A DNA stretch of 39,570 nucleotides from a virus (IMGVR_UViG_3300017971_000140), one strand, 5' to 3'. Counted from the stretch's first letter, positions 1 through 22,649 are shown. The notes: generated from the letters alone by a model not told the origin. Numbers and translations are program-made.

Positions 1-123
1 GCGTTGGTATTCTCCTACGAAGTCGCCGAATTCGAGTTTGCCGGAAGCGAAGTTAGCTACGGTATCGGAAAGGCCTGTTACTGCTGCGCCGATGGCTCCC
101 GAGGCTTCGTCGGCAAATCCGAA
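1..123. repeat. Terminal overlap of a circular assembly: bases 1-123 are identical to 39448-39570
   Basis: Direct comparison of the two window ends. The overlap lies inside an ORF that stays in frame across the junction. Confidence 0.95.
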
Positions 124-1906: not shown

Positions 1907-1943
1907 TTAACTCTTATATGTAGCTGGTGCCTGTATGTGTTGG
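1907..1943 (-). promoter_or_regulatory. Late-promoter-like bipartite motif, copy G (CCAACAC-N14-TACATATAAGAGTTAA)
   Basis: Same geometry as six other copies. Ends 14 nt before the ATG at 1892 and lies in the last codons of the upstream gene. Confidence 0.5.
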
Positions 1944-3106
1944 GGATTAACAAGATTAAATCGAATTAATCCACGGCCTACTAGGTTACACAAAGGCTCT
2001 CCTATCCACGATACTAATCTACCTAAGATTGAACCCTTCTCAGATTTGCCTACTCGGTGAGCCATCTCAGTTGCCCAGGCTTTTCCAATCGGTAATGCTA
2101 GGAGGGTAAGAGCTTTGGATGTAGGCATTCTCTTCACTAGAGGTGAAGCTAGGAACCAGTAACCGATCTTAGTCTCAAGAGGTACCCGTACAGAGTAGAG
2201 GCAGTCGCCTTGATATACTTCATCAGAGAGGTAACCCTGTCGATGAAGTTCAGTACAGATGATCTTACCGGAATCGTGTACTGTTGTCTGCGCAGGTGGT
2301 TTGTTGGCTTCGATGAGGGCGATCTTGTTCGCGATGTTGGCTTGTTCGAGCTGGGCTTGGAGTTGAGCTTGAGAGCTGACTTCTTGTGTGGCGGCAGCCC
2401 TTTCGAGTGTTCCAGCTTGTGCGCGAGACTCGGTGAGTTGTAATCGTCCGAGCCGTTCTTGCAAAGCGCGTTGGGTGTTGGTTTCTGCTCGGGCGGCTTC
2501 CTCTGCGCGAGCCTGGAAGAGTCCTTGTCCTGCTTGTTGCAGCCCCGATGCGCGTTGCTGTGCTATACTACGCTGTAGGCCTTCTTCCGCTGCTTCGGCT
2601 TCACTTACTCTTCCTAAACGTGCTTGTGCGAGTTGAGCTTGGAGTTGAGACTCGGCTAAGTTTGCGCCACCGAGTGTTTGAAGCTGTCGTTGGATGTTGA
2701 CGCCTCCGCGGACTCCTTGTGCTCCTAGGTCGCCACGTAGTTGACGGAGAGAAGTTTGTGTTTGTACGTCTTGGGCGCGTTGGGCTGCTTCTTCGATCTG
2801 TTGGAACGCTGGGTCTCGGCCACCCTCTGCGATTGTCTGCTGTCGACGCGCTGCGGCTGCTTCGAGTCCGGCTGCGCCACTGGTAGCTTGTTGTCCTTGA
2901 AGGGCTAAGATATTAGCGACTTCTGGAGCACGTCCTTGCTCTACTCGGCCCAATGAGCCTTCTCCAAAGACTTGTTGTGCTTGCTGCTGGGCTGCTGCTC
3001 GGTCAAGCTCTTGTTGCTGGCGAATATCCATGAAACGTTTTTGTGCCGAAGCTCTTAATTCCTCTTCCGTAGGGAATTGGATTTCAGGGATTTCAGGGGA
3101 AGTCAT
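1907..3106 (-). CDS. Internal virion protein: Q/A-rich coiled-coil N-terminal two thirds plus a Cys-containing globular C-terminal domain
   Basis: ATG 3106 with AGAGG upstream. Repetitive AQ/QA-rich sequence, then SGKIICTELHRQGYLSDEVYQGDCLY...GYWFLASPLV. Confidence 0.5.
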   Translation of the reverse strand: MTSPEIPEIQFPTEEELRASAQKRFMDIRQQQELDRAAAQQQAQQVFGEGSLGRVEQGRAPEVANILALQGQQATSGAAGLEAAAARRQQTIAEGGRDPAFQQIEEAAQRAQDVQTQTSLRQLRGDLGAQGVRGGVNIQRQLQTLGGANLAESQLQAQLAQARLGRVSEAEAAEEGLQRSIAQQRASGLQQAGQGLFQARAEEAARAETNTQRALQERLGRLQLTESRAQAGTLERAAATQEVSSQAQLQAQLEQANIANKIALIEANKPPAQTTVHDSGKIICTELHRQGYLSDEVYQGDCLYSVRVPLETKIGYWFLASPLVKRMPTSKALTLLALPIGKAWATEMAHRVGKSEKGSILGRLVSWIGEPLCNLVGRGLIRFNLVNPQHIQAPATYKS

Positions 3107-3115
3107 GCTGTACCT

Positions 3116-3451
3116 CTAGGTGAAATAAATAACTTTTACTGTGGCTGCCGAAGCGCCCGCATTTTTTAGGTAGACAAAGTCGCTAGTCCATTCCGTATCA
3201 CCATCCACAATTGATGGGCTACCAGAATGTTTAATAACCAGTCTACCGCTTGGAGGATTTGGTAATTCGTTGCGGATCTCGACCTCTGTACCTGCTTCAA
3301 TAGTGCCTTCATAACTAAATGACTCGAAATTCTCGGTTAGTGTTATCCTATGCAAACCATCTATCAGCTCTCTGAAGTCAGCCCTAAGTGAAGATTGTAA
3401 GTAATCTTCTACTTGGCCACCGGTAAATGGTTTTATTGCTCTGAACTCCAC
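3116..3451 (-). CDS. Small structural-module protein, function unknown
   Basis: 111-codon ORF with a GTG start at 3451, immediately downstream of late motif copy A. Confidence 0.5.
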   Translation of the reverse strand: MEFRAIKPFTGGQVEDYLQSSLRADFRELIDGLHRITLTENFESFSYEGTIEAGTEVEIRNELPNPPSGRLVIKHSGSPSIVDGDTEWTSDFVYLKNAGASAATVKVIYFT

Positions 3452-3465
3452 TTTCGCCCTCTCTG

Positions 3466-3502
3466 GTTACTCTTTTATGTATCTACTGTTTAATTGTGTT
3501 AC
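3466..3502 (-). promoter_or_regulatory. Late-promoter-like bipartite motif, copy A (GTAACAC-N14-TACATAAAAGAGTAAC)
   Basis: Conserved box plus upstream AACAC at exactly 14 nt. Bases 3476-3501 are identical to 12146-12171. Confidence 0.6.
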
Positions 3503-6107
3503 CTTGTGGAGCTGCATATTCTAGCTCGAAGCCAGAAAAAATTACGTTGGTGTCATACTCTGTGTTTTCAAAAAGTAGGCGCAGGGAACGAGCTTGTCCT
3601 TTGCGAAGTTTCGTCTTATAAGTCGGTTGCTGTGCACCACCCCAAGTGAATGTGTCCCAAGGTCTAGAGTCCCAAGTAGAGCCTCTATCTGGGAATGTGA
3701 AAGAGAATATACTGTGTGGTGTGTGTTCTTTGTAGTCAATCTCTGTTGAAGCGTCTACGGTAAAATCGGATAGGGGGATTGGGTTGTCGAGGTCTGTGTA
3801 TGACTGGAGCTTCACACGTAAGAATTTCTTCGCTATCGATGGGTTACCTACTGATTCCCAACCACTGCCGTACTTAAATTCGATTGGGTCTAACTGGTCT
3901 CCGTAGTCGTGGAGTTCACCGTCATTGTGTTGTTTCCACACTCTGTATGTTACTGCTGAATCTGCTGTGCGTAATTCTCGTGAGGCAAACCAGAGTTTTT
4001 TGTTGGAATAGGTCGCTCCAGTGGAGAAGTGAATATTCTTCCACTCTGTCCAGTTATCTTGTGCGTAATCGTAGACCACACAGAGGGAGTATTCATCGGA
4101 GTATAGGTTACCTGAGTCCGTAGACTCTGAGGGAATGTAAAGAATATACTGCTTGTCCTGTTCGTGGTGGACTGCTAGCGCTCGGCTGAATTGTAATTCC
4201 TCTGTGCTTGGTCGTCTAGAGGTTAAGGTTTTGATGATCTGATTAGAGATGAGTTTAGGGAGTGCCGCACCTGCCATGGCGTACACACCGCGGTTACCGA
4301 GGAAGAACAGAACACCGTTGATGTCTGCTATTGATGTGTGTGAAGTACAACCTACTCCGCCAGTGCTAAGGGCGGTGACGTTGATTCTGGAGCGAGAGAA
4401 GTCACCTGTCATCAAGAAGATACTGGATTCTCTGAAGATAACAAGAGTCTCGTTAGATTGAGTCAGGGCAGTAATCGATCCACCGTCGTTGTTCTCTGCT
4501 AAGAAGAAGTTTAGTACTGGGAAGTTAGTAGGTTCGTCAGGCTCGGAGTAGTACACAGCGTTAGGGTCAGTCTTCTTATTACCTAAGACAAGGGAGTTGT
4601 TGAAGTTCGTGACATATTTTGTTTGAGGTGGCTCCGCTGGATCTCTGATTGGATTTAAGAAACGTGCGCCTACGGAAGCGTCTGCCGTGTTATCTGTGTA
4701 CGATTGTGTAGCGTTGAAGGGGTCGTTGTTGAGCGTCTCGATCAGGAAGTAAGTTGAACCACTTGTCTTTGTGCGGAATACGTCAAGAAAGATACCAGTG
4801 GAGATTATTAGGTTGTCTGTTAAGTCGATGTCAACAGAGGATTCAACTACAATTGTGGTGGCTGTGACTGATGATACAACGTACTCAGCGTAAGCGTTTG
4901 TCGCTACGTCACTGTTAAATACTCGAATCTTGTCACCAGCAACTACTGTGTGTGCTCCACCTGCTCCGTCGTCTACAGTTAACGTAACCAAGCCTGATAC
5001 TGGAGAATTGGACTGGATACCGTCTGAATAAGCGCCGCGAGCATCGAAACCGTTGCCATCCTGTATGTTGGTTACTGTGACTACGGCTTTCTCACTGGAA
5101 AGAGTGAGTGATGTGCTTGCTGAACTGATCGCGCCACGATGGACTTGGCCATTGCGATCTCTGAACCATGGCTGAACCTTGTGAAGGTAATCGCCTGTAA
5201 GAACGCCAGAAGCGGCTGAGGTTGTGGTGGGTTGTGTTCCTGCTTCCATGCCGGCTCTGAAAAGAGCTTGCCCGTCGTACTGTTGAAGTGGGTCTAACCC
5301 AGTTGTGAAATATACAGATCTGTTGAATATTGAATGGTCAAGGTGGCTAGCGGCTGAGTCTGTTTGGAAGGCTGCGAAACCGTTGGTAAGTCCTGCACCT
5401 GAGTCTTTTGCAACTTCTTCAGTGTAATAGTACGTCAGCTCTACAGATTCTCCGTCTGCAAGTGTTGTCCCATTTAGTAATTCAAGGAAGGGGGAAGGTG
5501 TGGTTGTTTCTACTGTGGCAGAGGCTGTAAGCGATGGATTAGAGTTTAAGCCTGATACTAGGGCAGCAATTGTAAGACCTTCGTTCTCGATTTCATCACC
5601 AAGGTAGAAAGCTACCGTTTCAGCTGGGTAAAGTTCATTACCGTTGTTGTCTATCAGCTGGGCTACGTCTAAGCCTAAGATGAATCCTCTACCTGCTGGG
5701 TCTCCCCATGGGAAAGCACCCCAAGGAGCTGAACCCCATCCCGATGTCCCGGTACCGGAAGAGGAGTCGCCAGAAACTGAGATGGTTACGTCTTGTCCGT
5801 TGGCATTAGAGTTGGTTATTGTTAGAGTCGCGGTTTTTAGGCGGTGGATTGTATCGGAAAGAACGAGAATTTCATTGGTTGTGGTGCCGTCCTCTGGATC
5901 AATTCTGTCAAACCCTAGTACACCGTAGCCTCCGGCTTCGTCTGCAAAGATCTTGTATCCTCTGCGTTTGGACAGAGCACCGTCATCTAGAATCTTGACG
6001 TTCTCCGCAGCGGTGGCGAATCCGGCATCGCGTGTGATGTCATCAACGATCTCATTAAGACCTTTGAAGGATGAGTAAAATTTGCGTATGCCGTGAGTTA
6101 CTGCCAT
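3483..6107 (-). CDS. Large tail protein (tail tubular B / nozzle-like by size and position)
   Basis: ORF of about 874 aa. I prefer ATG 6107 (TAATG overlap with the upstream stop, GAGGAG 11 nt upstream) to the track GTG at 6119. Beta-rich, with repeated W-G-x-x-P-W-G type motifs. Confidence 0.45.
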   Translation of the reverse strand: MAVTHGIRKFYSSFKGLNEIVDDITRDAGFATAAENVKILDDGALSKRRGYKIFADEAGGYGVLGFDRIDPEDGTTTNEILVLSDTIHRLKTATLTITNSNANGQDVTISVSGDSSSGTGTSGWGSAPWGAFPWGDPAGRGFILGLDVAQLIDNNGNELYPAETVAFYLGDEIENEGLTIAALVSGLNSNPSLTASATVETTTPSPFLELLNGTTLADGESVELTYYYTEEVAKDSGAGLTNGFAAFQTDSAASHLDHSIFNRSVYFTTGLDPLQQYDGQALFRAGMEAGTQPTTTSAASGVLTGDYLHKVQPWFRDRNGQVHRGAISSASTSLTLSSEKAVVTVTNIQDGNGFDARGAYSDGIQSNSPVSGLVTLTVDDGAGGAHTVVAGDKIRVFNSDVATNAYAEYVVSSVTATTIVVESSVDIDLTDNLIISTGIFLDVFRTKTSGSTYFLIETLNNDPFNATQSYTDNTADASVGARFLNPIRDPAEPPQTKYVTNFNNSLVLGNKKTDPNAVYYSEPDEPTNFPVLNFFLAENNDGGSITALTQSNETLVIFRESSIFLMTGDFSRSRINVTALSTGGVGCTSHTSIADINGVLFFLGNRGVYAMAGAALPKLISNQIIKTLTSRRPSTEELQFSRALAVHHEQDKQYILYIPSESTDSGNLYSDEYSLCVVYDYAQDNWTEWKNIHFSTGATYSNKKLWFASRELRTADSAVTYRVWKQHNDGELHDYGDQLDPIEFKYGSGWESVGNPSIAKKFLRVKLQSYTDLDNPIPLSDFTVDASTEIDYKEHTPHSIFSFTFPDRGSTWDSRPWDTFTWGGAQQPTYKTKLRKGQARSLRLLFENTEYDTNVIFSGFELEYAAPQGNTIKQ

Positions 6108-7072
6108 TAGATCATCCACTCCTCGCTAAGTTCTAACTCGATCTGATCTTCGTCTATCTCTCTAAAGGCGTTAATTATCTCTTGAAGCATCAGCCCTAAC
6201 TCGCGCTCTTGGTCTTTAGAATCAACCATCGAATCAGCTTTAAGAACTTTCCATGCTGCATAGGCTATAAGGTATCGCTCACATGTATCTGGTAATTCTG
6301 AATGTGTTGTTGAATTTTCGCCGCCTACGATGTAATCACCTGCTGAAATGGTTTCTAAAGCACCTAGTTCGTGACCGCTTTCGGGTGTAATGTACCCAGT
6401 CGTTGGGTCATAAGTACTAACCGGGATACCTACGGCCTTAGCTACTCCGTTCTTGTCAACCACTGTGAGTTCGTCAAACTGCTCAATGTAATGCTCTGCC
6501 AGTGTAGGGAGTGTGGAATCTTGGGCTTTGGTAGGAGATGCGTTGAGGTCTATACGTGTGAGTTCGCTGCCACTTGTTTGAGTTGCACTGACTTGACCGA
6601 TACGAAAACCTAGGCTCGGTAACTTGTGTTGGTAAGTGATTCTTAGTCCGTCTGTCCAGCTACGGGATGGGATTGGTTGAATTGCTATCTGTTTCGCTAT
6701 ACGTATGTAGGCGTAAGGGATATCGCTTTCTACGTCCGGTAGTCGTGATTTGATGTGCTTCTGTCTAAGGTTTGTATAGTCTGATGCCTTCTCGGAGAAC
6801 TTTGTTTCAATGCTCACGATGCGTCCATCTAGGTATAAGTCTGAAGGAAGATCGTAAAGCTCTTGTTTGGCCACCAAATCGATGGTGGTTGTCTCAATAA
6901 ATACTTTTGGGTGGGTAGCTGAGATTTGTGATTGGATGTTTGCTTGTGCGTCGTTGAGGTATTCGGCAATCTCCTGAGTTGTAATACCTAGAGGGTTGTC
7001 AGGATCGTTGTCGAACTCTTCGTTGTCCGTAAGTCTACGAACCTGAGATATTAACCGCTCTAGTCTTCTCAT
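6107..7072 (-). CDS. Head-tail adaptor / tail tubular A-like protein (positional call)
   Basis: 321 aa. ATG 7072 in a TAATG overlap, GAGGAT upstream. Lies directly before the large tail protein. Confidence 0.35.
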   Translation of the reverse strand: MRRLERLISQVRRLTDNEEFDNDPDNPLGITTQEIAEYLNDAQANIQSQISATHPKVFIETTTIDLVAKQELYDLPSDLYLDGRIVSIETKFSEKASDYTNLRQKHIKSRLPDVESDIPYAYIRIAKQIAIQPIPSRSWTDGLRITYQHKLPSLGFRIGQVSATQTSGSELTRIDLNASPTKAQDSTLPTLAEHYIEQFDELTVVDKNGVAKAVGIPVSTYDPTTGYITPESGHELGALETISAGDYIVGGENSTTHSELPDTCERYLIAYAAWKVLKADSMVDSKDQERELGLMLQEIINAFREIDEDQIELELSEEWMI

Positions 7073-7365
7073 TATCTAATCCTCAAGTTACTCTGGAAAG
7101 TGCCGATGATCCTGTCTAAGGCTTCAACACGTTGTCGGGCTGCTGCTTCTTGGGTTTTTAACTCGACTTCACCAGCGCGTTGACTGCGAGCTGCGGCTTG
7201 TTCTTTTTGGCGTTCTGCGATTTCACGGGCTTGCATCTGCTGGCGAACTTTAGAATCGTCGATATGGGTCTGACCACCGCCACCTCCGAATAAACCGCCT
7301 ACTGCGCTAATTACAGGTGCGGCTGCTGCTAGGGCTTGAAAGAACATGGGGGCTACTTTTTTCAT
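7072..7365 (-). CDS. Small virion-module protein with hydrophobic/Gly-rich N-terminus and charged coiled coil
   Basis: 97-aa ORF with N-terminal APMFFQALAAAAPVISAVGGLFGGGGG. Confidence 0.45.
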   Translation of the reverse strand: MKKVAPMFFQALAAAAPVISAVGGLFGGGGGQTHIDDSKVRQQMQAREIAERQKEQAAARSQRAGEVELKTQEAAARQRVEALDRIIGTFQSNLRIR

Positions 7366-7366
7366 C

Positions 7367-7813
7367 TTACGTGTCCGTTACAATGGTTTTTACTGTTCCA
7401 TCACCGAAAATAACCTTAAGATCACCATCGGCGGTATCTGTATAAATCTTTGCTTTTCCTACGGTTGCGCCTGGGGCTGTGCCATCGTCGTCGATGATGA
7501 GGTGAGGCATAACACCTGCGGTCCCTAGTTCTACTAAGTCAGAAGCGTTGACTTTGATCATATCTATGCGAGCAGTACCAGCGTTATCAAGTGCATCGAG
7601 GAATTCGTTGTTTTGGATGTTCAGTTTAGCAGGACGAATTGTTAAGTCTGCGATTCCTGTATTCTGAATCTGGGTACCTGATCCGTTAGCACTATGGTCG
7701 TGGCTGGAGATCTTAGCCCATAGGACATCGAAGAGGGCTGAGAAATTTGCTCGGCCTTTGGCTGGATATGTGAAGTTGAGTCCTCCACTGGTTGTCTTGG
7801 TGTCACCTGCCAT
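7367..7813 (-). CDS. Short tail-fibre-like protein; N-terminus paralogous to the 8075-9223 product
   Basis: MAGDTKTTSGGLNFTYP...ISSHDH...IKVNASDLVELG aligns with MAGFSTTSGGLNFQYP...ISSHDH...IRANTSDLIELG. GGAGG upstream. Confidence 0.55.
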   Translation of the reverse strand: MAGDTKTTSGGLNFTYPAKGRANFSALFDVLWAKISSHDHSANGSGTQIQNTGIADLTIRPAKLNIQNNEFLDALDNAGTARIDMIKVNASDLVELGTAGVMPHLIIDDDGTAPGATVGKAKIYTDTADGDLKVIFGDGTVKTIVTDT

Positions 7814-8073
7814 TAGTTAGCCTCCGGCTTGGGATTTGCGTCTTTGACTGCTTGTATGTGCTTGAACCAACGGCCGTTTGAGGAAAGAGTGCCTGTTTCT
7901 TTGAGTTCGTCGAAGATCATGCCTAATTGTTCGCCTAGTTGGCCATAGCCTTTGACTCTATTGCCAATTAGGGAGATGTTGATATTTCGTCGCTCCTGCT
8001 CTAGGTGACGAGCAGTTTCTGCCTCTGTGAAGTATTCTTTTACTCCGTTGCGGGTTCTCCAAAGTTTTTCCAT
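7813..8073 (-). CDS. Hypothetical protein between the two fibre genes (possible fibre assembly factor)
   Basis: 86-aa ORF, GAGG upstream, single-base overlaps with its neighbours. Confidence 0.4.
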   Translation of the reverse strand: MEKLWRTRNGVKEYFTEAETARHLEQERRNINISLIGNRVKGYGQLGEQLGMIFDELKETGTLSSNGRWFKHIQAVKDANPKPEAN

Positions 8074-8074
8074 A

Positions 8075-9223: not shown

Positions 9224-9243
9224 TGTGTGCGCTCCTTAAGTGG

Positions 9244-9280
9244 CTTACTCTTCTATGTAGTCGGGTTGGTAAGGTGTTAT
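9244..9280 (-). promoter_or_regulatory. Late-promoter-like bipartite motif, copy C (ATAACAC-N14-TACATAGAAGAGTAAG)
   Basis: 16/16 match to the consensus box. Ends 20 nt before ATG 9223. Confidence 0.65.
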
Positions 9281-9310
9281 AAAAAACGCCGTTTTTGTGG
9301 TTCTACGGCG
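9281..9310 (-). terminator. Rho-independent terminator after the capsid operon
   Basis: Minus strand CGCCGT-12 nt loop-ACGGCG followed by TTTTTT, 17 nt after the stop at 9327. Confidence 0.6.
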
Positions 9311-9326
9311 AAACCTATTCATTCGG

Positions 9327-9674
9327 TTACACCGATGGTTCGTCAGATCCTACGAGTCGAACGATGAAGTCATCACCAGCGGCACTTGTTACAACTGTGA
9401 AGGTTGAAGCCGTGGGAGCTACTTTAACGTAAGGTGCAGCAGCTTGAGACCCAATAGCGGTTACCTGGACGTTGGGAGCCTCGACAAAATTCTTCACAAA
9501 TGAGAAGATTATTTCAGCGCCTGATCGTCTGGCTAAGAGGTTAGGGGTGTTACTGGAAAGTCCTGTTGCTACAGGTGTGGCTGCGCTAACTACTGCTAAG
9601 GCGTCAACGATTGCCATTTCTTCGCGCATTCTGCGCCGTTCTACTCTGATGTGTCTACTTCTTCCAAATGCCAT
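9327..9674 (-). CDS. Small protein following the major capsid gene (possible decoration or minor head protein), Arg-rich N-terminus
   Basis: 115 aa, AAGGAG 8 nt upstream of ATG 9674. Confidence 0.4.
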   Translation of the reverse strand: MAFGRSRHIRVERRRMREEMAIVDALAVVSAATPVATGLSSNTPNLLARRSGAEIIFSFVKNFVEAPNVQVTAIGSQAAAPYVKVAPTASTFTVVTSAAGDDFIVRLVGSDEPSV

Positions 9675-9747
9675 AACTTAAACTCCTTATGTTTAAGGCG
9701 GGGGACTTACGTGTACTAATAACTGCCCCTGCTGGTTAATTTGTGTC

Positions 9748-10953
9748 TTAACTAGTTGCTAGGTTGTGGATTTGTCCCTGGAACGCTGGCTTAATAACGT
9801 TCTGAAGGTATCCGCCGTAACGAGCTTCGTATCCGTCGCTGTCAGCCTGACGAAGAAGGACTGTTCCATCATCGTCAAACCAGCCGAAACCTGGTCGGTG
9901 CATCATTTCTATGAAGTTGTCGTTCAACAACCAAACGTCATCATCAGCACAGAATCGGCTAATTACCATTGGTATACGTGCAGGTCCAGCCTGTAGATCA
10001 ACAGCTTTGAAACCGATGCGGCCAACAAGCTCTTTATCCCTAGGAGTGACTTCCATGTACTTTACGTCTTCCAAGAGGTTAGCGATCTTAACATACTGTG
10101 TGTAAGAAGTGATACATAGGTTAGGGTATTTACCACACTTCTTATGGATCTGAAGGACAGTGTCGTTTAGGATATCCTGTGAAATTGCGGCTCCACCAGC
10201 GTCTTTACGGTAAGATCTCCAGCGTCTTTCAGCTGCTAGGTCGATGCCGTACTTAGTTCCTGTGGCTGTACCAACTGTTCCTTCAAGACCTTCAGGATCA
10301 TTGTCCTTAGAACCTTGCATGTAAATAACGCTGGTCTCTCCGGCTGAGATTGTCTGAGAACCGCTGATGAGAACGAGGTTAATAACCTTAGTAGAAGGCT
10401 CAACACTTGTGATCTCGAAGAGGTCAGTTCCAGAACCGACGTTTACATAGTCGTCTTCTTCTAGGTTAGCTTCCTTCCAAGTAGCGTCACTGATAGTAAC
10501 AACATAAGGAGAGCCAACAGTACCAGAACCAGAAGCTCCGCTAGTCATTGTACCAAGAGCGGCTGTACCATCACTGAAAAGGATACGTTCCATGTTACGT
10601 GCGTAAGATTCAACCGTGTTCTTGATTGATTCCTGAAGCAAGCGAACGAATGCACCTTTGTCGTCTTTAGAAGCCATCATGGACTCACGGTCGATGTTTA
10701 GTCGAGCGTAGACTTTCTTAGGTGTTACAGTCATCTGGAGGTAAGACTTGGTGTTAGCAGTTGGTAAAGAACCTGAACCTACAGAACCACCGAAACCTTT
10801 AGGCATCGTTGTCTTTAGGTCAGAACCTGTGAAGTTGAAATTCTTCTTTACTCGTGAGAGAAGAACGTTCTCTGAGTTATAGATTTTTTCCGAGAGTTTG
10901 CCGTAAACTGTTTTAAATAGTTCACTGACACTGGTTAGATCGTAATCGGCCAT
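9748..10953 (-). CDS. Major capsid protein
   Basis: 401 aa, AGGAGA upstream. Lies directly after the acidic scaffold gene and before a terminator. Sequence style fits HK97-fold coat proteins. Confidence 0.7.
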   Translation of the reverse strand: MADYDLTSVSELFKTVYGKLSEKIYNSENVLLSRVKKNFNFTGSDLKTTMPKGFGGSVGSGSLPTANTKSYLQMTVTPKKVYARLNIDRESMMASKDDKGAFVRLLQESIKNTVESYARNMERILFSDGTAALGTMTSGASGSGTVGSPYVVTISDATWKEANLEEDDYVNVGSGTDLFEITSVEPSTKVINLVLISGSQTISAGETSVIYMQGSKDNDPEGLEGTVGTATGTKYGIDLAAERRWRSYRKDAGGAAISQDILNDTVLQIHKKCGKYPNLCITSYTQYVKIANLLEDVKYMEVTPRDKELVGRIGFKAVDLQAGPARIPMVISRFCADDDVWLLNDNFIEMMHRPGFGWFDDDGTVLLRQADSDGYEARYGGYLQNVIKPAFQGQIHNLATS

Positions 10954-10973
10954 GACTTAATTTCTCCTTATGG

Positions 10974-12119
10974 TTAGTTGAGCAAGTCAAATGGGTTAAT
11001 GTTTTCGAGGTCTTCGAAAGTTAAAATCTCCTTGGCTGGCTTCTTGGTAGCCTTGGATGAGCCTTTTTTCTTGGGCTTCGTCGCTTTGGAATCACTTTTC
11101 ACGCGCTCGGCTAGTGCGTCCACGAATGCCTTTTCTGCACGCGCTTTTAGTTCTTCCTGTTTTATCCCAGGATTGTTTTGTTGCAACGATATCAGATAAT
11201 CCATAGCGGACTTATCCTTTACTAAGTCTGGGTTGATATCCTTAAGTACTTCAACAGCTGCGTCTTGATGTGTGATCATCACATGGTACTGACCAACTGT
11301 TTCAGGCGTAAGGTTTTCAACACCAAACTCAATTAACTCCTTCTGAAGCTCTTCGAACCTATCAGCACCAATTTGATGCGTTTCTAGGACAGACTGCACT
11401 TGATTTTTCAGCTCGGTTTGTTGAGCGAAAAGTGTCTGCTGTTCCTGTCGACGCTCCTCACGGGTTTTGTAGTGTTCGACTTGCTGTTTCAAAGCGCGTT
11501 GCTCACGCTCTTCTGGAGAAAGTTCCAAATGTTCGGCAATCTGCGGAGCCAGTTGCGAAACGTAGTTCTCGACAAATTGGTTCCTATCAAGGCCTGCCAA
11601 TTCACACACGAGGTCTAACGCTTCCTGAGCTTTTCCCGTAGTTGCTAATTCTTGGAACTGTTTAGCATTGTTATTAAATGTGTCTTGTTGAGCTTGGAAC
11701 TGTTCGCGCTCAGTGTTTAATTCGGTGAACTTTTTGTCCCAGGCTTCTTTTCCTGCAAAATTGTCTTTTAGGTCTTGCAGGGATACTTCAACTTCTTCCC
11801 CGTCAACTGTTATCTTATGAAGATCTTCATCATTAGCATCGCTAGGCTCGTTGTCAACATCGGTCTCACTAGACTCAACCTCATCGGTCTCCTCAGATTC
11901 TTCGTTGTCTTCACCCTCTTCTTTGTTAACTTCTTCGACGGCTTCGTCGCTAGCCTCGTCATTTCCTTTTTCATCTTCAGTTGGCTCATCTGAATCTTTA
12001 ACATCGTCTCCAATCTCTTCAACTGGCTCATCTGGTTGTTCTCCTTGCGTAGCTAACCCTTGCGTCGGATCGACTTCGTGCATCATTGATAATGCTAGGT
12101 CTTGTAAGTCATCGCTCAT
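10974..12119 (-). CDS. Scaffolding protein
   Basis: 381 aa with a highly acidic D/E-rich N-terminal half, then coiled coil and a basic tail. Lies between portal and capsid. AAGGAGG upstream. Confidence 0.7.
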   Translation of the reverse strand: MSDDLQDLALSMMHEVDPTQGLATQGEQPDEPVEEIGDDVKDSDEPTEDEKGNDEASDEAVEEVNKEEGEDNEESEETDEVESSETDVDNEPSDANDEDLHKITVDGEEVEVSLQDLKDNFAGKEAWDKKFTELNTEREQFQAQQDTFNNNAKQFQELATTGKAQEALDLVCELAGLDRNQFVENYVSQLAPQIAEHLELSPEEREQRALKQQVEHYKTREERRQEQQTLFAQQTELKNQVQSVLETHQIGADRFEELQKELIEFGVENLTPETVGQYHVMITHQDAAVEVLKDINPDLVKDKSAMDYLISLQQNNPGIKQEELKARAEKAFVDALAERVKSDSKATKPKKKGSSKATKKPAKEILTFEDLENINPFDLLN

Positions 12120-12135
12120 GCCATTTCCTCCTTGG

Positions 12136-12172
12136 CTTACTCTTCTATGTATCTACTGTTTAATTGTGTTAT
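12136..12172 (-). promoter_or_regulatory. Late-promoter-like bipartite motif, copy B (ATAACAC-N14-TACATAGAAGAGTAAG)
   Basis: 16/16 box, ending 16 nt before ATG 12119. Confidence 0.65.
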
Positions 12173-12174
12173 AA

Positions 12175-14331
12175 TTAACCTACAAAATCATTCGGATTTG
12201 GTACTTGTGTTTGTGGGAGGACGATTTCTTGATCAACTCCGGTATCGGGTGGTATCGGTTGCATCGGTGCTTGGTGACTCATGATGACTTCTGAAATGGT
12301 CATCGGTAGCTGGAAGAACACAGGGTAATTCTCGAAATCCGCTAAGCGTTGAGCGAATTTAGGATTAATTAATGCTTTTTGGAACATTAAACCTTCAGTC
12401 GTATTTAGGTGCTTAGCTAACAAAAGAGCGGGTGAGTTGGTTACAACCTCTGCCTCTCCGGAAAGAATCTCTTGTATTGCTGCGTTGGCTAACGCAGGCT
12501 CGGGTGGTAGAGTTGCTTTGACTGTTGGGTTATTGAATTGTTTAACGTGTGCTTCCCAATGCTGAATATGATCTTCAAAGTTCTGTGGTTCGGCAACATC
12601 GCTGCCGGACATCATGTCCGCATTCTCGGCTTCTGCTGCGTTGATTGCTGCGGTTGTGAGGTCAAAGAAAGCGTCAGGGCTTGAGAAGTCTAGCATGTCA
12701 GCTACTTTTTCTTGTGTGAACATGTTGGGGAAAGCCTGGTTTAGCTGAATAACCGTAGAGATTCTACCCGCTTTTGATTCTGGTAAGGCTGATGTGTTCT
12801 GAACACGGATGTCATACGAATGGTTTAAGTCTTCTACGTTGAAGTATTTGAGCAGATACTGGTTGTGCTTACCTACCATCTTAATCATACGTTCGTCAGA
12901 CTGAGTGTAAAAGTCTGCGGCTGTAAGGGTGATGAAATGAAATACCTCTTGAAGGAAGTCGCGGTGTTTGGCTATGCTGGTTGATTCTCTGCGGGTGGCT
13001 TGCTCCTCGAAGAAACCGAAAGCTTTGAAGGCTTCTACGTTAGGGATTCCATCGCCACGACGGGTGCCGGATGAGTTGCTGAGTTTTTCGAAGGTATTTT
13101 CGAGTTTGTCGATCATCGCCATGATGTCGCCGCTAACCATGTTAGGGACTGACCATGTTGGAGGGACTCCACCTTTGTATTGTACTACACCGGGTTCATT
13201 TGATTTGGATTGGTTAGGATCGATAGAACCGGCTGGAACGAACAACTTAGGGGCTGCAAGGGAGCGGTCACGCAACATGATGGTATACAATGCGTTGATC
13301 GCGCTTTGAAGGGCTTTTAGGTCCATGAAAGGTGACATTCCTCTCATTTGACCCGGTACGTCTATTGAGCTTAAACGAATGAGCGGAACTTTGCCGTGAG
13401 AATAAGGGAGATCGTCGTTTTGAAGGATGGTATGCTCTGTGAATTTGATGATGCGGCCTTCTGGGAGTTCTTGGGTGGCTGCATGGTAAAGAGTGAGAAC
13501 TGTTACCTTGTCGCACTTCTCTTCTTTGACGCCGTAGCGGTAAAGGTCTTCGTCTTGTCGACAATTGTCGGTAGGTTTGATCTTGCCTTTAGAGTCTGGG
13601 AAATCAATCTCAAGTTGCTCTAAATAAGCGGTTTCTTCAGTGATTACCCAACTGGTTTCTTCGTATCTTCTAGAGGGATGGGGTTCTGGAAAGACTCGGA
13701 ATGGTAGGAAGGGAGTTAGGCCGACGTCTCCGGTCTTCTTGACTTTGGTAACCTCTACTGTACCGTCTTCAGTTTCAATCTTGACCGTCTTCTGGAGTTT
13801 GCGAGCTGATGGGTGAATGTCACCACTCTCGGGATCCCAGTCTACTAATAAGAAAGCCTCTCCACATATGATAGCGTCGCGCTGTAGCTTGCGGCGTACG
13901 TCGTCAATGTTGTTCTCGTAGGAGTAGGATTTTAACCAGGATTCAGTTACTTTTGCTTTAGCTTTGTCTTGGAACTCTACCCCGTGGTTGGGTAGGACTG
14001 TAACACCTGGTCGGAAAGTGGCTAATCTGGAGACGGCAGCATCTGTGACGTCGCGCATGTGGTTGACTATAAGGTGTCGGAACTTCCTTGTTTTTGCGTA
14101 ACCCTCTGAATCTCTGTATAATCGGCCTTGACGGTCGATCTCTCTACCTATGGATAAGCCTTGGTAAAGAGCGATGTGTTGTAAACAGAGGTCACGGAAA
14201 CCTTTATCGTATTCTTTTAAGTCTGTGTGAGCCTGGTTCAAAGCTTCTAGTAATGACTTCTCGTTTGGGTTATCAAGCTTGTGTGTCCACCAAGGTCTAA
14301 TAGAAGGGGGTTTCTTTGTCTCTTTTTCCAT
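12175..14331 (-). CDS. Portal protein
   Basis: 718 aa, located between terL and the scaffold gene. AAGGA upstream. Confidence 0.7.
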   Translation of the reverse strand: MEKETKKPPSIRPWWTHKLDNPNEKSLLEALNQAHTDLKEYDKGFRDLCLQHIALYQGLSIGREIDRQGRLYRDSEGYAKTRKFRHLIVNHMRDVTDAAVSRLATFRPGVTVLPNHGVEFQDKAKAKVTESWLKSYSYENNIDDVRRKLQRDAIICGEAFLLVDWDPESGDIHPSARKLQKTVKIETEDGTVEVTKVKKTGDVGLTPFLPFRVFPEPHPSRRYEETSWVITEETAYLEQLEIDFPDSKGKIKPTDNCRQDEDLYRYGVKEEKCDKVTVLTLYHAATQELPEGRIIKFTEHTILQNDDLPYSHGKVPLIRLSSIDVPGQMRGMSPFMDLKALQSAINALYTIMLRDRSLAAPKLFVPAGSIDPNQSKSNEPGVVQYKGGVPPTWSVPNMVSGDIMAMIDKLENTFEKLSNSSGTRRGDGIPNVEAFKAFGFFEEQATRRESTSIAKHRDFLQEVFHFITLTAADFYTQSDERMIKMVGKHNQYLLKYFNVEDLNHSYDIRVQNTSALPESKAGRISTVIQLNQAFPNMFTQEKVADMLDFSSPDAFFDLTTAAINAAEAENADMMSGSDVAEPQNFEDHIQHWEAHVKQFNNPTVKATLPPEPALANAAIQEILSGEAEVVTNSPALLLAKHLNTTEGLMFQKALINPKFAQRLADFENYPVFFQLPMTISEVIMSHQAPMQPIPPDTGVDQEIVLPQTQVPNPNDFVG

Positions 14332-14567
14332 TATTCAAATCCTTTTAAGATGGTTTCTTCTATCTTATCATTAGGGACTTCAAACCCTTCGTCGTGCTCT
14401 GGAGCTGCTTCACCGAAAAACTGTGAAATGTCTTGCTGCTGAGCTGGTTGGTATTGAACGGTGTGGGTGGAAAGTGCGTTTGCTCTGGCCTGTATGAAAC
14501 CAAGAAGACCTAGCACGAATCCTGAGATGGCGAATAATAGCGCTGTTAGTGATAAAGCTATGATCAT
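14331..14567 (-). CDS. Small membrane protein (one N-terminal TM helix)
   Basis: 78 aa with MIIALSLTALLFAISGFVLGLLGFI. TAATG overlap with the portal start. Confidence 0.5.
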   Translation of the reverse strand: MIIALSLTALLFAISGFVLGLLGFIQARANALSTHTVQYQPAQQQDISQFFGEAAPEHDEGFEVPNDKIEETILKGFE

Positions 14568-14648
14568 TAATTACCCTTGTTAAAACCCCCCTTAGGGGTG
14601 GAGGCTTTGCTATGTAAGCTGGGTGCCTCCCTTCGGCTTAGCCTGACC

Positions 14649-14685
14649 CTTACTCTTCTATGTAGAACGTACTTATTGGTGTTAC
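14649..14685 (-). promoter_or_regulatory. Late-promoter-like bipartite motif, copy D (GTAACAC-N14-TACATAGAAGAGTAAG)
   Basis: 16/16 box. The terL TAA stop is embedded in GTAACAC. An 81-nt leader follows. Confidence 0.65.
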
Positions 14686-16244
14686 ATAAATTCTGAAAGA
14701 AAATCGTCGTTGCTTCCATTATCTAAGAGATTGTTGTCGTCCATTGCTCTTAAATCGTCATCTAAAGACACCCATTTTGTCATACCTTCGGAATCAATAC
14801 CTGAAGATTTCTCCATGGCGTGGTAGCGAATGTGATAGTGAGATACTTGGATCAAGTAGCGGAACGCATCAATTAAGTGATCATCCTTCTTTGGTATCTT
14901 ACCGTGTTCGTCTTTTACGTAGTTGGTCATCTCCCACATGAGGTTTTCACAGCGTGAAGACCAGGTTACTTTGTTGGCTAGGAGCGCATCTTTAATTGTA
15001 GAAAGGCCTTCGTCCTTAGACTTCTGTTTCTTATTCGTAGGGTTGAAAGCGTAACCACGTTCGACCATTTCATTTTTGAACCAAGTGGCGGCTTCATCAT
15101 AGTAGAATTGCCAGTCGTGTTTTGCTAAGTGAGGAGCTAATTCGGCTAGTTTTTCTCGGATCATGGGTTCGATTACACCTACAGTTTTTTCTCCTTCCTT
15201 GGTTAGGTAGAGCTCATCCATGAGGACAAGTCGTTTCGTGTAAGGGTTGACACTTGCAAAGAGTACTGCAAACGCTGAGCCTTTGGAAGCTGAGCCAGGG
15301 TCTGCGATGCAATAAAAGTCTTGGGCTTTGCTGGCCATCTGCATGGCGCTTGCATGGCGTACTCGTTCGTCACCTTTGAGCATGGGGAAGATGGATCTTG
15401 AGCCACCGACTACGAACTCGGCGCAATACTCTCTGAACCAAACGTCCAATTCGCCCTTCTGTCGATAAGATTCGCGGATGCTGGCTAATTCGTCTAAGTC
15501 TTGGTGAGGGTTCATCCAAGTAGGAGCTTGGAAGAAGACGGCGTCTGTGTTCTCTGGATTCTTAGCGTAGTCCATCAACTCAGTGTAGAAACCTTTCGCA
15601 GGTGGAGGAGTGGATATGATAACGATTGTAGCTTTTTTGGTAGTCGTTGAGGCTTTGAACGCATCATAAGCGCCTGGTCTGAATTCACGGTATTCATCAA
15701 AGATTACGAGGTCAGGAGTGATACCACGGTATTCATCGTAGTTGTCTGAACCGTCGATCTTGATAAAGGAATCGTTTACCCAACTCAAACGCATTTCTGC
15801 ATTGTTAGGCTTGCCTTTGATGTACTTCTTCCCGTAGTTGACAAAGTCATCGACCTTTTCTAAGTCCAGAGCGGTGGCGGCGTTCATTGTTTGGATGCGG
15901 TTCTTAGACCAAACGACTTCCTTGGCCTGCTTCTGCTTAGGACAAAAGTAATACATACCCGAACGTGGGGATAGTAAACCTTTGTACCACGCTACGCCGT
16001 TAACTAACTCTGTCTTACCTGTTTGTCGTCCCAGCTGTACGAACACAAGGCGAAACTGACCGGAAAGAATGGCTTTTCCAATGGTTTTCTGTCCTTCTGC
16101 TGGGTAGAACTCAGTTGTTTTGAGGTCTTGCATGAAAGGATGGCTTGGGGGTAGCTTGCGGCCTTCGTAAGGAGTCCAGACTTTTTGTAAGTCGTGGAGT
16201 ACCTGCGCTGTAGCGTTAATCTGGGCTTTGTGTTTGTCGTCCAA
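14682..16244 (-). CDS. terL: Terminase large subunit
   Basis: Walker A LGRQTGKT and Walker B DLVIFDEY. Nuclease motifs CIADPG and DDHLIDAFRY. TTG start with GGAG 9 nt upstream. Confidence 0.9.
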   Translation of the reverse strand: MDDKHKAQINATAQVLHDLQKVWTPYEGRKLPPSHPFMQDLKTTEFYPAEGQKTIGKAILSGQFRLVFVQLGRQTGKTELVNGVAWYKGLLSPRSGMYYFCPKQKQAKEVVWSKNRIQTMNAATALDLEKVDDFVNYGKKYIKGKPNNAEMRLSWVNDSFIKIDGSDNYDEYRGITPDLVIFDEYREFRPGAYDAFKASTTTKKATIVIISTPPPAKGFYTELMDYAKNPENTDAVFFQAPTWMNPHQDLDELASIRESYRQKGELDVWFREYCAEFVVGGSRSIFPMLKGDERVRHASAMQMASKAQDFYCIADPGSASKGSAFAVLFASVNPYTKRLVLMDELYLTKEGEKTVGVIEPMIREKLAELAPHLAKHDWQFYYDEAATWFKNEMVERGYAFNPTNKKQKSKDEGLSTIKDALLANKVTWSSRCENLMWEMTNYVKDEHGKIPKKDDHLIDAFRYLIQVSHYHIRYHAMEKSSGIDSEGMTKWVSLDDDLRAMDDNNLLDNGSNDDFLSEFM

Positions 16245-16382
16245 CTCGCAGTACTCCGTTTTTGTCTAGTTTATAGTTGTGCTTGGCTCCATAAGAGAAC
16301 ACTTGCAAGTAAACCTCTCGCTCTGCCATTGCTGTAGAGAAGCGTCCTGCGTTGTCTTTGTAGCATCGTATGCCCTAGAGAC

Positions 16383-16607
16383 CTAGGTGTCTCTTAATCC
16401 TTTAAAGCGCAAGAAGTAGTTGCTGTTATCTTCTTCTAGGCTAAAATCGCTGAGGGTAGAGCGGTCAAGCCTGTTTTCGTCTGCCGTCTGATAAATCTTG
16501 TCTAGCATTCCCTGCATGTAGCGGTCTGCGTCGTTCTTGTGCGCTAGGTACTCCTTAGAGTTTTGGATCTGCTGCGCTACGATATATTCTGTTTCTCTAG
16601 GTGTCAT
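16383..16607 (-). CDS. Hypothetical protein between terS and terL
   Basis: 74 aa, AAGGAG upstream of ATG 16607. Confidence 0.5.
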   Translation of the reverse strand: MTPRETEYIVAQQIQNSKEYLAHKNDADRYMQGMLDKIYQTADENRLDRSTLSDFSLEEDNSNYFLRFKGLRDT

Positions 16608-16633
16608 GTCTGGCTCCTTTGATTGACCTTTCC

Positions 16634-17155
16634 TTAGTTTTCCTCTGGAGTAATGTCAAAAATACCGAAGTCGTCTACGTCGCCGAGGATCTCCTTAACC
16701 TCTTTGGCTGTGTTGATTGGGTTCACACGGGCGATCGCGATATTATCAGTTGCCATGCCGTCATCTAGTTTCAGGATCTTGTCCATGTTGCCTACAATGT
16801 CGGATAGTTTCTTGATTTCGTCAATCGTGAGTTCAACGCCGGATTTTTTAACCGCTTCGAGTGAGTTTTTTATGGTGTGTAGGGAGTTATCCATAATGGA
16901 TTTCATGAGTGGCATTTTGTGTTTGGTGAGTTCTTGGATTTGATCCTTCTCAACCTCATTGCGGATCTCTGCAAAGGGGCGCATCCCGTTACGGGGTTTG
17001 TATACCCAGTCACGGACTGTTGGGAATGGCTTGTTTACCATCTCGGAGATGGCTGCTACAGTGTTATATCTTAGGTACAACTCTAGAGCCTGCTTCTGCT
17101 CGGCGCAAACGTTGATACCTGGGGTTCCGTCTGTCCATATTGATAATTCGTCCAT
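16634..17155 (-). CDS. Terminase small subunit (candidate)
   Basis: 173 aa from ATG 17155 (AGGAGG upstream). HTH-like QKQALELYLRYNTVAAISEMV. Lies just before terL. The longer track start at 17203 would overlap motif copy E. Confidence 0.5.
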   Translation of the reverse strand: MDELSIWTDGTPGINVCAEQKQALELYLRYNTVAAISEMVNKPFPTVRDWVYKPRNGMRPFAEIRNEVEKDQIQELTKHKMPLMKSIMDNSLHTIKNSLEAVKKSGVELTIDEIKKLSDIVGNMDKILKLDDGMATDNIAIARVNPINTAKEVKEILGDVDDFGIFDITPEEN

Positions 17156-17177
17156 AAAAAAGGCCCTCCTACTAGGT

Positions 17178-17214
17178 CTTACTCTTCTATGTAGGAAGGC
17201 CATATATGTGTTAC
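17178..17214 (-). promoter_or_regulatory. Late-promoter-like bipartite motif, copy E (GTAACAC-N14-TACATAGAAGAGTAAG)
   Basis: 16/16 box, ending 22 nt before ATG 17155. The upstream gene's TAA is embedded in GTAACAC. Confidence 0.65.
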
Positions 17215-17777
17215 ATACAACTAGAGCAATCTATAGAACCGGACGATGGAGCCGTGGACGATGCTTTATGCCAGACAAACCCTTTAGCCGAGGTGTCGCC
17301 GCGCTCTATGGCGTTTAGGTTATGATTCCTTCCTGGAGGAAACCACTCTTCTAAAGACAGTAAAGACGTGTGGATTGTTGTACCGTTAAAAGAAATGTCT
17401 ATGGGCTGATTAGTCCCGTTGTGAATATGGGCGTATGCGGCACCTGCAACAGCGTTTTGTTGTATCGGTGTTACAATCTCGAAAGTGTCGGCTGCGGTCG
17501 GTGCTCCACTAAGGGCAACTGAAAGAGTGATGGTGTCGGTGGTGACACTGGCTACCTCTCTGCCTTCTCCGTCGTAAGTACCGCTAGACATTATGATCTG
17601 ATCACCAGCAGAAGCAACATGTCCTGTGGCGTTGATTACCGTGGCGGTAGAGGCTGCTTCCACAGCGTCTTGAACAACCCATGTACCCATCTTGGTGAAG
17701 TTGTCGGCGACCGCGACCGCAGGGCTACTTCTATTAGCGTTCCAAATCGGATCTCTTGCATTAAATTCATTAGCCAT
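17211..17777 (-). CDS. Beta-rich Ala/Thr/Ser-rich protein, function unknown (possible virion surface protein)
   Basis: 188 aa, AGGAGA upstream. Confidence 0.4.
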   Translation of the reverse strand: MANEFNARDPIWNANRSSPAVAVADNFTKMGTWVVQDAVEAASTATVINATGHVASAGDQIIMSSGTYDGEGREVASVTTDTITLSVALSGAPTAADTFEIVTPIQQNAVAGAAYAHIHNGTNQPIDISFNGTTIHTSLLSLEEWFPPGRNHNLNAIERGDTSAKGFVWHKASSTAPSSGSIDCSSCM

Positions 17778-17797
17778 TTTTTATTCTCCTTTTTTGT

Positions 17798-18580
17798 TTA
17801 GAAATGATCTTCTAAGGTAAGATCGGTAGTATTAATGCTGTCTGATGTACCTAGATATCCAGTGTACACAACCGACGCTTCTCCTGCTGCACCAGATAGC
17901 TTAGTAACCTCTAGTACAAGGTCTGTAGCTGGGGGGAACTGTAGGAAAGGTCGTGGGTTCAGGCTTACCCCTGGTGATGGAGATATGAAAACTGTCTCTG
18001 TTCTCCATAAGCCGCCGTTTAAGAAGGGGTTAGATATCTTTATCCTTGCGCGTATGTCCCTACCAGTCTCAGCCATAAAGACGGGTTCGGAGACGAATAA
18101 CCAATAGTTGCCTGGTACTGTGTAGTTACCGTTCTGAGAGGAATTGTCTCCTATTGGCATACATGCTTGTACATCGCCGGACATTGAAAGATCTATCTGT
18201 CCAACGTTTGCGCCGTTTGATCCGGCTGTTAAAACTTCAATGCGTGTTACTCTCCAAAACGTTTTCAAGCCAAGCGCTGGGGTTGTACCTGTGAGGGTTA
18301 CAGTCTCGGTTTGTCTTAGGTAGTTAGTGTCCAAACCGTAAACTTGGATGGTGTGCGCTCCGATGCCAGCGACTGCGTCTGCCGCAGAGGTACTTACTAC
18401 TGATACAACAGAGGGTACAGAAGGGAATACTTGTATACCGCCGGGTGTCCATACGTGGGTTGGGTCTGTGCCTACTACTGGGTTGTAGCCTGAGCGAAAG
18501 AATGGTATAGCTTCTTGCGACTGAAGCTCGTGGATTTCATTGATATATCCTATATCGTGATAAAAACTGTGGGAAGACAT
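17798..18580 (-). CDS. Beta-rich protein, function unknown (possible virion surface protein)
   Basis: 260 aa, first gene after late motif copy F. Confidence 0.4.
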   Translation of the reverse strand: MSSHSFYHDIGYINEIHELQSQEAIPFFRSGYNPVVGTDPTHVWTPGGIQVFPSVPSVVSVVSTSAADAVAGIGAHTIQVYGLDTNYLRQTETVTLTGTTPALGLKTFWRVTRIEVLTAGSNGANVGQIDLSMSGDVQACMPIGDNSSQNGNYTVPGNYWLFVSEPVFMAETGRDIRARIKISNPFLNGGLWRTETVFISPSPGVSLNPRPFLQFPPATDLVLEVTKLSGAAGEASVVYTGYLGTSDSINTTDLTLEDHF

Positions 18581-18612
18581 TATCTGTGCGTCCTTACATT
18601 AGGTGTTACCTC

Positions 18613-18649
18613 CCGTACACTCTATGTAGGAGTCGTAGTAATGTGTCAC
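18613..18649 (-). promoter_or_regulatory. Late-promoter-like bipartite motif, copy F (GTGACAC-N14-TACATAGAGTGTACGG)
   Basis: Divergent box but the same 14-nt spacing. Ends 32 nt before ATG 18580. Confidence 0.5.
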
Positions 18650-22620: not shown

Positions 22621-22649
22621 ATTGTATCAGTTGTCGGAATTATTGTCAA
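22621..22649 (-). promoter_or_regulatory. Sigma70-type promoter TTGACA-17-TACAAT with a CCGACAA spacer box
   Basis: Minus strand reads gtccTTGACAataattCCGACAActgaTACAATg. Confidence 0.65.

Follow-up and report, generated by a model that had tools for sequence, protein, structure and literature searches.

The bipartite element described here occurs seven times on the minus strand of a 39,570-nt stretch of DNA from the virus IMGVR_UViG_3300017971_000140 (the window, in whose coordinates all positions are given) and consists of an AACAC-type -35 element followed, at a fixed distance of 14 nt, by a 16-nt box. We consider it most likely that these repeats are late promoters of the phage and are read by the host core RNA polymerase together with the phage's own sigma factor of the extracytoplasmic function (ECF) type, the C-terminal half of the product of the gene at 36802-37857 on the plus strand. 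We infer the promoter nature of the repeats, the sigma that reads them, their transcription start site and the timing of their use from the motif in the window, from its conservation in related genomes and from the sigma protein itself.

Results

The bipartite motif in the window

The 16-mer TACATAGAAGAGTAAG was matched six times in the window with at most three mismatches, always on the minus strand (1907, 3466, 9244, 12136, 14649 and 17178) and exactly in four of the six cases; dinucleotide-shuffled sequences gave 0.45 +/- 0.66 such matches with a maximum of 2. When both strands were scanned with the regular expression ACAC-N14-TACATA, exactly seven matches were returned, all on the minus strand, against a chance expectation of about 0.08 (10 specified bases, 2 x 39.6 kb). 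Under a position weight matrix derived from these seven, the sites scored 28.5-52.8 bits, with the next best position on either strand at 6.0 bits and a shuffled maximum of 6.6 bits, although this matrix takes in the spacer columns and is overfitted, and its one use here is to display how far the seven sites stand apart from the rest. Neither the regular expression nor the matrix scan found a copy on the plus strand of the window.

From the end of the box to the start codon the distances were 14, 14, 20, 16, 81, 22 and 32 nt, with a Shine-Dalgarno sequence in between; the true start of the gene following the 17178 copy is the ATG at 17155, and the ATG at 17203 falls within the motif itself. 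A sequence-only reading of the window that preceded this analysis had listed seven minus-strand copies, and the regular expression returned precisely those coordinates. The box variants that it quoted are correct, the distances that we measured agree with its range of 14-81 nt to start codons lying behind a Shine-Dalgarno sequence, and the scans of both strands bear out its remark that the plus-strand arm carries no copy.

The spacing is invariant, with 14 nt from GTAACAC to TACATA, equivalent to 16 nt from AAC to nACA, at all sites in seven genomes (the window and six relatives described below). Counting a weaker eighth candidate, the -35 position reads AAC in 6/8 window sites and GAC in 2/8 (chance about 1/64 per site); over all the genomes compared, the -10 core is ACAT or ACAC. 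Because the box is identical over 16/16 positions in four copies though their spacers differ, its identity appears to be selected and not a by-product of recent duplication, which argues for selection acting on the whole box as a putative unit of -10 element, discriminator, start and first transcribed bases. A simple recent repeat was ruled out by the differing spacers together with the conservation of the sites in relatives. Two copies nevertheless share 26 identical nucleotides, spacer included (3476-3501 = 12146-12171), an identity that the sequence-only reading had already reported correctly. At the 3466 copy the spacer within this identity is coding sequence, and the identity therefore points to a promoter being copied now and then from one site to another.

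Secondary structure at the sites was neither shared nor stable (z-scores -0.7 to +1.1), in agreement with the earlier opinion that a terminator or an RNase site is unlikely, and the motif element had no match in Rfam.

Conservation of the motif in related genomes

Six related metagenomic genomes or large fragments were reached through homologues of the portal protein and the DNA polymerase. Portal identity was 76% for G23, 71% for G30, 69% for G24, 53% for G26 and 52% for G32; the portal was not covered in G07. Gene order is common to all relatives, and in every relative with that region recovered the replication arm ends with the gene for an ECF-type sigma. This sigma is fused to a kinase in G24, G30, G07 (sigma 48% identical) and a further locus, L009, and stands alone as a 186-aa protein in G26, where it aligns with the SigW and SigX models across the whole of these models at scores under their cutoffs. 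The sigma gene was not recovered in G23 and G32.

Absence of the motif from relatives keeping the same genes had been named beforehand as an outcome that would speak against a promoter class; instead, all six relatives keep AAC-N16-nACA(T/C) at orthologous gene boundaries, on the virion-gene strand only. The genome-specific patterns, namely GTAAC(A/G)N-N14-(A/C)ACAT(C/T)AATAAG(C/T)GAA in G23, GTAAC(G/A)N-N14-(G/C/T)ACAT(T/A)AA in G24, GTAACAC-N14-(A/G)ACATA in G30 and GAAC-N16-(T/A)ACACTAAT in G26 and G32, gave 3-8 matches per genome, all on the virion-gene strand and 0 on the opposite strand. The clade-B promoter form is GAAC-N16-TACACTAAT, and the stand-alone sigma of that clade is encoded at 13131-13691 of L029. 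When the box was searched without demanding a -35 element, every match in the window, G23 and G30 again lay on the strand of the virion genes, the split in G32 was 7 to 1, and in such box-only searches AAC stood at the exact offset from the box in 6/7 matches of G32 and 4/5 of G23. Alignment of two orthologous intergenic regions showed that only GTAAC, ACAT and the terminator tail are conserved, the spacers being free. The -10 element differs by clade, with nACAT in the four genomes with a kinase-fused sigma and in G23, and (T/A)ACACTAAT in G26, which has the stand-alone sigma, and in G32.

A megablast search with 20 kb against a phage collection gave no match, and no cultured relative was found, a tblastn search of the sigma half (E up to 1) against 50,697 phage records giving no match either. 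The exact 16-mer had six single matches in IMG/VR, none of them bipartite, and these were dismissed as chance matches; patterns back-translated from the sigma had no match in the same database. Portal relatives at about 30% identity in IMG/VR and JGI do not have the motif. Neither the full 35-nt pattern nor the portal profile matched any of 185,579 bacterial and archaeal genomes, which gave no host or prophage lead. The 19.7-kb locus L033, whose PolA is 38% identical, was rejected as a relative: it belongs to a different kind of phage and has no sigma Pfam match among its called genes, which places the family boundary above 38% PolA identity. As a separate observation, a tRNA-like sequence with a GTTCGAATC T-loop lies at about 6040-6125 of the clade-B relative L026, between the portal and scaffold genes and just downstream of a promoter copy.

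Individual copies of the putative promoter

The copies head seven, perhaps eight, co-oriented gene blocks on the minus arm from 18.6 kb (perhaps 20.2 kb) on, and all features of this section lie on the minus strand. The candidate eighth and weaker copy, GCGACAA-N14-TACATAAAAAGAGTGG at 20189-20225, is intergenic and correctly oriented before a 126-aa open reading frame (ORF) and an MptE-like gene. Its matrix score is at background (-2.0 bits) because of a 1-nt insertion in the box; at the equivalent place G23 has a clear site (3443). The weakest of the seven copies proper, at 18613-18649 (GTGACAC-N14-TACATAGAGTGTACGG, 28.5 bits), precedes genes of 260 and 188 aa. Its -35 element is GAC and not AAC, its box departs after TACATAGAG and its leave-one-out score is -10. 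The copy at 17178-17214 (GTAACAC-N14-TACATAGAAGAGTAAG), with an orthologous site in G23 at 7413, precedes the 173-aa gene starting at 17155, a 74-aa gene and the large terminase gene.

Right after the terminase stop codon, the copy at 14649-14685 is separated by an 81-nt leader from a 78-aa gene and the portal gene. Orthologues of this site were found in G23, G24, G30 and L016, and the aligned islands are conserved at GTAAC and ACAT only. The leader contains a small hairpin, CCCC-TAA-GGGG followed by a T-run, at about 14575-14600, and similar hairpins occupy the equivalent leader place in G23, G24 and G30; this hairpin is possibly an attenuator. After the portal stop codon, the copy at 12136-12172 precedes the scaffold, major capsid and 115-aa genes. 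This scaffold-capsid operon is closed by a terminator hairpin with a U-run (CGCCGU...ACGGCG UUUUUU, 9281-9310; -10.5 kcal/mol for a folded stretch of 55 nt), which abuts the -35 element of the next copy, at 9244-9280. The latter stands before the tail and internal-virion operon (genes of 382 aa to 878 aa), and the junction of terminator and promoter after the capsid operon is kept by position in G23, G24 and G30.

The -35 element of the copy at 3466-3502 (GTAACAC-N14-TACATAAAAGAGTAAC) sits in the final codons (GGT AAC ACA) of the 878-aa gene, and the copy, which precedes genes of 111 and 399 aa, has orthologues in G07, G23, G24 and G30. The last copy, at 1907-1943 (CCAACAC-N14-TACATATAAGAGTTAA), is embedded in the 3' end of the 399-aa gene and precedes genes of 541 and 580 aa. 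Its equivalents in relatives keep the -10 box and have AGC at the -35 position.

An ECF-type sigma fused to a kinase

The gene at 36802-37857 (+), the last of the early or replication arm, encodes a 351-aa kinase-sigma fusion. Residues 1-180 are a T4-gp1-like deoxynucleoside monophosphate (dNMP) kinase (PHROG 139 at 3e-32; Pfam DNMK) whose P-loop and other invariant residues are intact in the corresponding DNA (36802-37341). Residues from about 185 to 351 form an ECF-type sigma with sigma2 at 191-258, a linker and sigma4 at 287-332. Against the NCBIfam sigma-70/ECF superfamily model TIGR02937, whose cutoff is 42.9, this half scored 54.3 bits and was aligned to positions 3-164 of the 165 in the profile, the relatives' sigmas scoring 55-63 bits; in Pfam, Sigma70_r2 scored 24.3 against a cutoff of 24, and r4_2, at 25.3 against 25.7, fell slightly below. 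The best solved relative of the sigma half by sequence was sigma4 of M. tuberculosis SigL.

The linker between sigma2 and sigma4 has about 28 residues, with 262-278 predicted to be disordered. An AlphaFold model (predicted local distance difference test score, pLDDT, 79.6) gave as top Foldseek matches sigmaE (1or7), SigL (6dv9), SigH (6kon), AlgU (6in7) and SigW (5wuq), all with probability 1.0, and further matched the solved structures of CnrH, BldN and T4 dNMP kinase (1dek); the low template-modelling scores of the model are due to its several flexibly linked domains. The N-terminal extension thus has the dNMP kinase fold of 1dek and is not a sigma1 region. The sigma-like domain that had been proposed for 36802-37857 is identified as an ECF-type sigma by TIGR02937, Pfam and fold comparison alike, and the product contains a complete one (sigma2 and sigma4). 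The fusion to a dNMP kinase had gone unmentioned in the sequence-only reading.

The fusion is kept in relatives at 346-358 aa and is otherwise rare: an exhaustive search of 1.84 billion representative proteins with HMMER yielded just six clusters that cover both halves, the remaining matches being free-standing kinases. No anti-sigma domain was recognisable in the neighbouring ORFs, though most small ORFs match nothing at all, and the sigma gene has no autoregulatory copy of the motif.

A GC-rich hairpin with a T-run lies at 36767-36790 (+), directly 5' of the ribosome-binding site of the sigma gene. The same arrangement was seen in L007 (about 9960-9990), L009 (about 4555-4580), L028 (about 13275-13300), L030 (about 11806-11832) and L029 (about 13086-13106), so that the hairpin is kept by position in six genomes (the window and five relatives) and in both clades, with differing stem sequences. 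It is possibly a leaky terminator gating sigma synthesis. On the other side of the gene, a hairpin ATGGGTAG...CTACCCAT with a T-run at 37882-37915, between the convergent sigma and 580-aa genes, is shared with L007 and L028; it probably terminates transcription in both directions.

Genome layout and putative early promoters

The ends of the window (1-123 and 39448-39570) overlap exactly over 123 nt; the window is therefore a circular assembly of a genome of about 39.45 kb. The 580-aa gene spans the circular junction and appears in the window only as a truncated 412-aa ORF at 37972-39210. Genes for replication are found on the plus arm (about 23.6-37.9 kb), namely a VapE-type primase/helicase, a PD-(D/E)XK exonuclease and a family A DNA polymerase, and the minus arm carries, in order, small genes with the MptE-like gene, the large terminase, portal, scaffold and major capsid genes, and adaptor-like, tail and internal-virion genes.

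Sigma70-type promoters were scored as matches of at least 10/12 to TTGACA-N17-TAnAAT. Eleven such matches lie within 22.6-33.2 kb, 10 of them on the plus strand; within 1-20 kb there are 2, and in this region the total of matches is at chance level (16 vs 17.9 expected) and falls inside coding sequence. The strongest, TTGACA-N17-TATACT at 23606-23634 (+), is at the head of the plus arm, where it is one of about 10 matches at this threshold, and another, TTGACA-N17-TACAAT with an upstream TG at 22621-22649 (-), lies among the small early genes heading the minus arm; G23 and G24 have equivalent consensus promoters ahead of their small genes. That sigma70-type promoters lack motif copies, as had been stated earlier, fits this distribution, in which the consensus promoters cluster on the other arm.

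Several other features were recorded in these regions. The divergent intergenic region contains two tandem repeats of 83-85 nt that are 99% identical (23414-23581, +) and a 15-nt repeat, TATACTATGAGTATT, with two copies 62 nt apart (23288 and 23350, +); these repeats are candidates for an origin, operators or extra early promoters. Two adjacent early ORFs at 24148-25167 (+) match the zincin-like metallopeptidase family MPTase-PolyVal, which is also present in G23, G24 and G30. About 800 nt between minus-strand genes (20300-21100) contain no ORF of at least 60 aa except one 66-aa ORF starting with TTG, and this interval has no Rfam match and no tRNA.

Discussion

Proposed transcription programme

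If the repeats are late promoters read through the phage sigma, the host sigma70-type holoenzyme would use promoters close to the TTGACA-N17-TAnAAT consensus to transcribe the plus arm together with the few small genes that come first on the minus strand. The sigma would accumulate late because its gene is last on the arm, behind a conserved hairpin and T-run. Its sigma4 would then bind (G)TAAC at -35 and its sigma2 would read the -10 core ACAT, exactly 17 nt past AAC, and the start would fall about 6-8 nt past ACAT, within the downstream half of the box, with the conserved G of GAGT as the probable first base. With such a start each Shine-Dalgarno sequence would fall in the leader, even at the two sites lying 14 nt from the start codon. 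The seven or eight promoters would drive the packaging, head, tail and ejection operons, one of them restarting transcription right after the terminator of the capsid operon. No other polymerase or recognisable transcription factor was found among the window ORFs.

Several observations weigh against this interpretation. The -10 core is ACAT or ACAC and not of the CGT type of the best-studied ECF sigmas (although this is compatible with an ECF promoter, the -10 element being described as particular to each ECF group), and conservation over 16 nt exceeds the usual readout by sigma2. At -35, AGC replaces AAC in some of the relatives' orthologous sites and GAC does so at two window sites. Where the terminase gene (ATG TAA C) and the 878-aa gene end, the -35 element also runs into coding sequence or a stop codon, and coding may explain part of its conservation at these places. 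The pooled consensus of 36 sites, gtAAC-N17-ACA(T/C)-nA, draws on relatives' sites that were mostly collected with a regular expression demanding AAC and ACA, and the invariance of these bases in the pool is thus by construction. The apparent co-variation of sigma and promoter rests on just two clades, and the late-promoter assignment as a whole is drawn from sequence comparison.

The kinase domain takes the place of sigma regions 1.1/1.2, and we regard it as a speculative and rather unlikely idea that it gates late transcription on the nucleotide or replication state, or else that it contacts the non-template strand downstream of -10. Such a contact, if made, would account for the long 16-nt conserved box in the fusion-bearing clade. 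Either role, if true, would represent a new coupling of late expression to DNA metabolism in one polypeptide.

Alternative explanations

The same late promoters might be read by an alternative ECF sigma of the host, with the phage sigma serving another target or role. An AAC at -35 and a rigid spacer are generic ECF features, and the link between the motif and the phage protein is itself a comparative one. This is nonetheless improbable, since every relative with the region recovered encodes its own ECF-type sigma at the equivalent position, the -10 box varies by clade and genome in step with phage divergence, and the genome offers no other repeated motif for the phage sigma to read. Decidedly improbable, too, is a bipartite element that binds a late activator or other DNA-binding protein of the phage and thereby recruits the sigma70 holoenzyme to a poor -10 element. 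Late activators are common in phages and TACATA loosely resembles a TAnnnT -10 hexamer, but no DNA-binding regulator is recognisable among the window ORFs, a dedicated sigma is encoded, and an asymmetric element with an unconserved 14-nt spacer fits contacts by sigma4 and sigma2 rather than by a dimeric activator.

The box always lies upstream of a ribosome-binding site, and its 3' part, conserved beyond a normal -10 element, would be transcribed, both of which would suit a function in RNA as a processing site, stabiliser or translational element of long read-through transcripts. We hold this to be very improbable: the sites share no stable structure and no Rfam family, the distance to the start codon ranges over 14-81 nt, one copy comes after a terminator, and an AAC half at a fixed distance across a free spacer has no rationale in RNA. 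High identity reaching into the transcribed region is also T7-like, and CATAGAAGAG resembles the initiation region of the SP6 promoter. Recognition by a single-subunit (T7/SP6-like) or other phage RNA polymerase is, however, extremely improbable, because the motif is bipartite with a free spacer and not a contiguous 23-mer and because no gene for such an enzyme is present. Homologues of a phage polymerase were absent from the window and from the gene tables of the relatives, and the earlier statement that there is no T7-type RNA polymerase holds, in that the sole window ORF above 720 aa, that of 878 aa, has its matches among families of internal-virion proteins and amidases.

Comparison with known systems

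The late promoters proposed here resemble those of bacterial ECF systems (B. subtilis sigmaW/X/M/V, E. coli sigmaE) in their AAC at -35, short -10 element, rigid distance and near-consensus copies. The ECF style suggested in the sequence-only reading is in line with published descriptions of ECF promoters, which as a rule combine an AAC at -35 with a -10 element specific to the sigma group, have their elements 14-17 bp apart and depart little from the consensus (PMC5758882). The protein likewise has the sigma2 and sigma4 regions alone, as ECF sigmas do. The sigmaW promoter is TGAAAC-N16-CGTA, with a spacing equal to that of AAC-N16-TACA here, and (T)GTAAC resembles the -35 element of sigmaX. 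The phage system differs from the bacterial ones in its ACAT/ACAC core and conservation over 10-16 nt, in a sigma that the phage encodes as a fusion with a dNMP kinase, without a recognisable anti-sigma partner or an autoregulatory motif copy, and in a regulon that would be the virion-gene arm and not a stress response.

Redirection of the host polymerase by a phage sigma is a well-known strategy (SPO1, T4, phiEco32). In the phiEco32/7-11/SU10 group of Kuravirus-like podophages, a divergent sigma-70-family factor of the podophage redirects the host core polymerase to later genes, much as proposed here, and matches of the relatives' structural genes to Pfam SU10_adaptor and SU10_MCP suggest a distant kinship with this group. 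Promoters of phiEco32 gp36 lack a -35 element and consist of AATGTA alone (tAATGTAtA), with its centre at -11.5 (PMC12276001, PMC4331800). This AATGTA/TAATGTATA element at about -11.5 contrasts with the bipartite motif of different sequence here, as do genomes of about 77 kb with one of about 39.4 kb; no gp79-like partner was identified and no gp36 homology was detected in the present phage, and that group has no kinase fusion. Read on the opposite strand, the gp36 AATGTA becomes TACATT, a near match to the -10 element here (TACATA; GACATT in G24); this likeness is probably a coincidence because -10 recognition is strand-specific.

SPO1 gp28 with gp33/34 and T4 gp55 similarly replace the host sigma for a temporal switch at phage-specific promoters, but they belong to other sigma lineages, use other promoter sequences and come from large myoviruses. 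T4 gp55 reads only the -10-like TATAAATA and needs the sliding clamp. T7 and SP6 late promoters share with the present ones many near-identical copies at operon starts and identity up to or past the start site; those are contiguous 23-bp elements that need a single-subunit polymerase, whereas these are bipartite and no gene for such a polymerase was found.

For an uncultured podophage lineage, comparison thus provides a candidate sigma-promoter pair, with a putative late-transcription programme of about eight operons, their starts and a terminator-restart junction readable from sequence. It would follow that fully bipartite promoters of the ECF style are open to the ECF-like sigmas of phages, and that phiEco32, with its single -10-like element, represents just one of the solutions. 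The clades appear to have diverged in -10 specificity and would then be candidate orthogonal sigma/promoter parts for synthetic biology. In the kinase-sigma fusion a metabolic enzyme is joined to a factor for transcription initiation, a rare and concrete case that lends itself to testing. Relative to the known phage systems, what is new here is that an ECF-style bipartite late promoter, with ACAT/ACAC as its -10 core, is combined with a sigma that carries a fused dNMP kinase.

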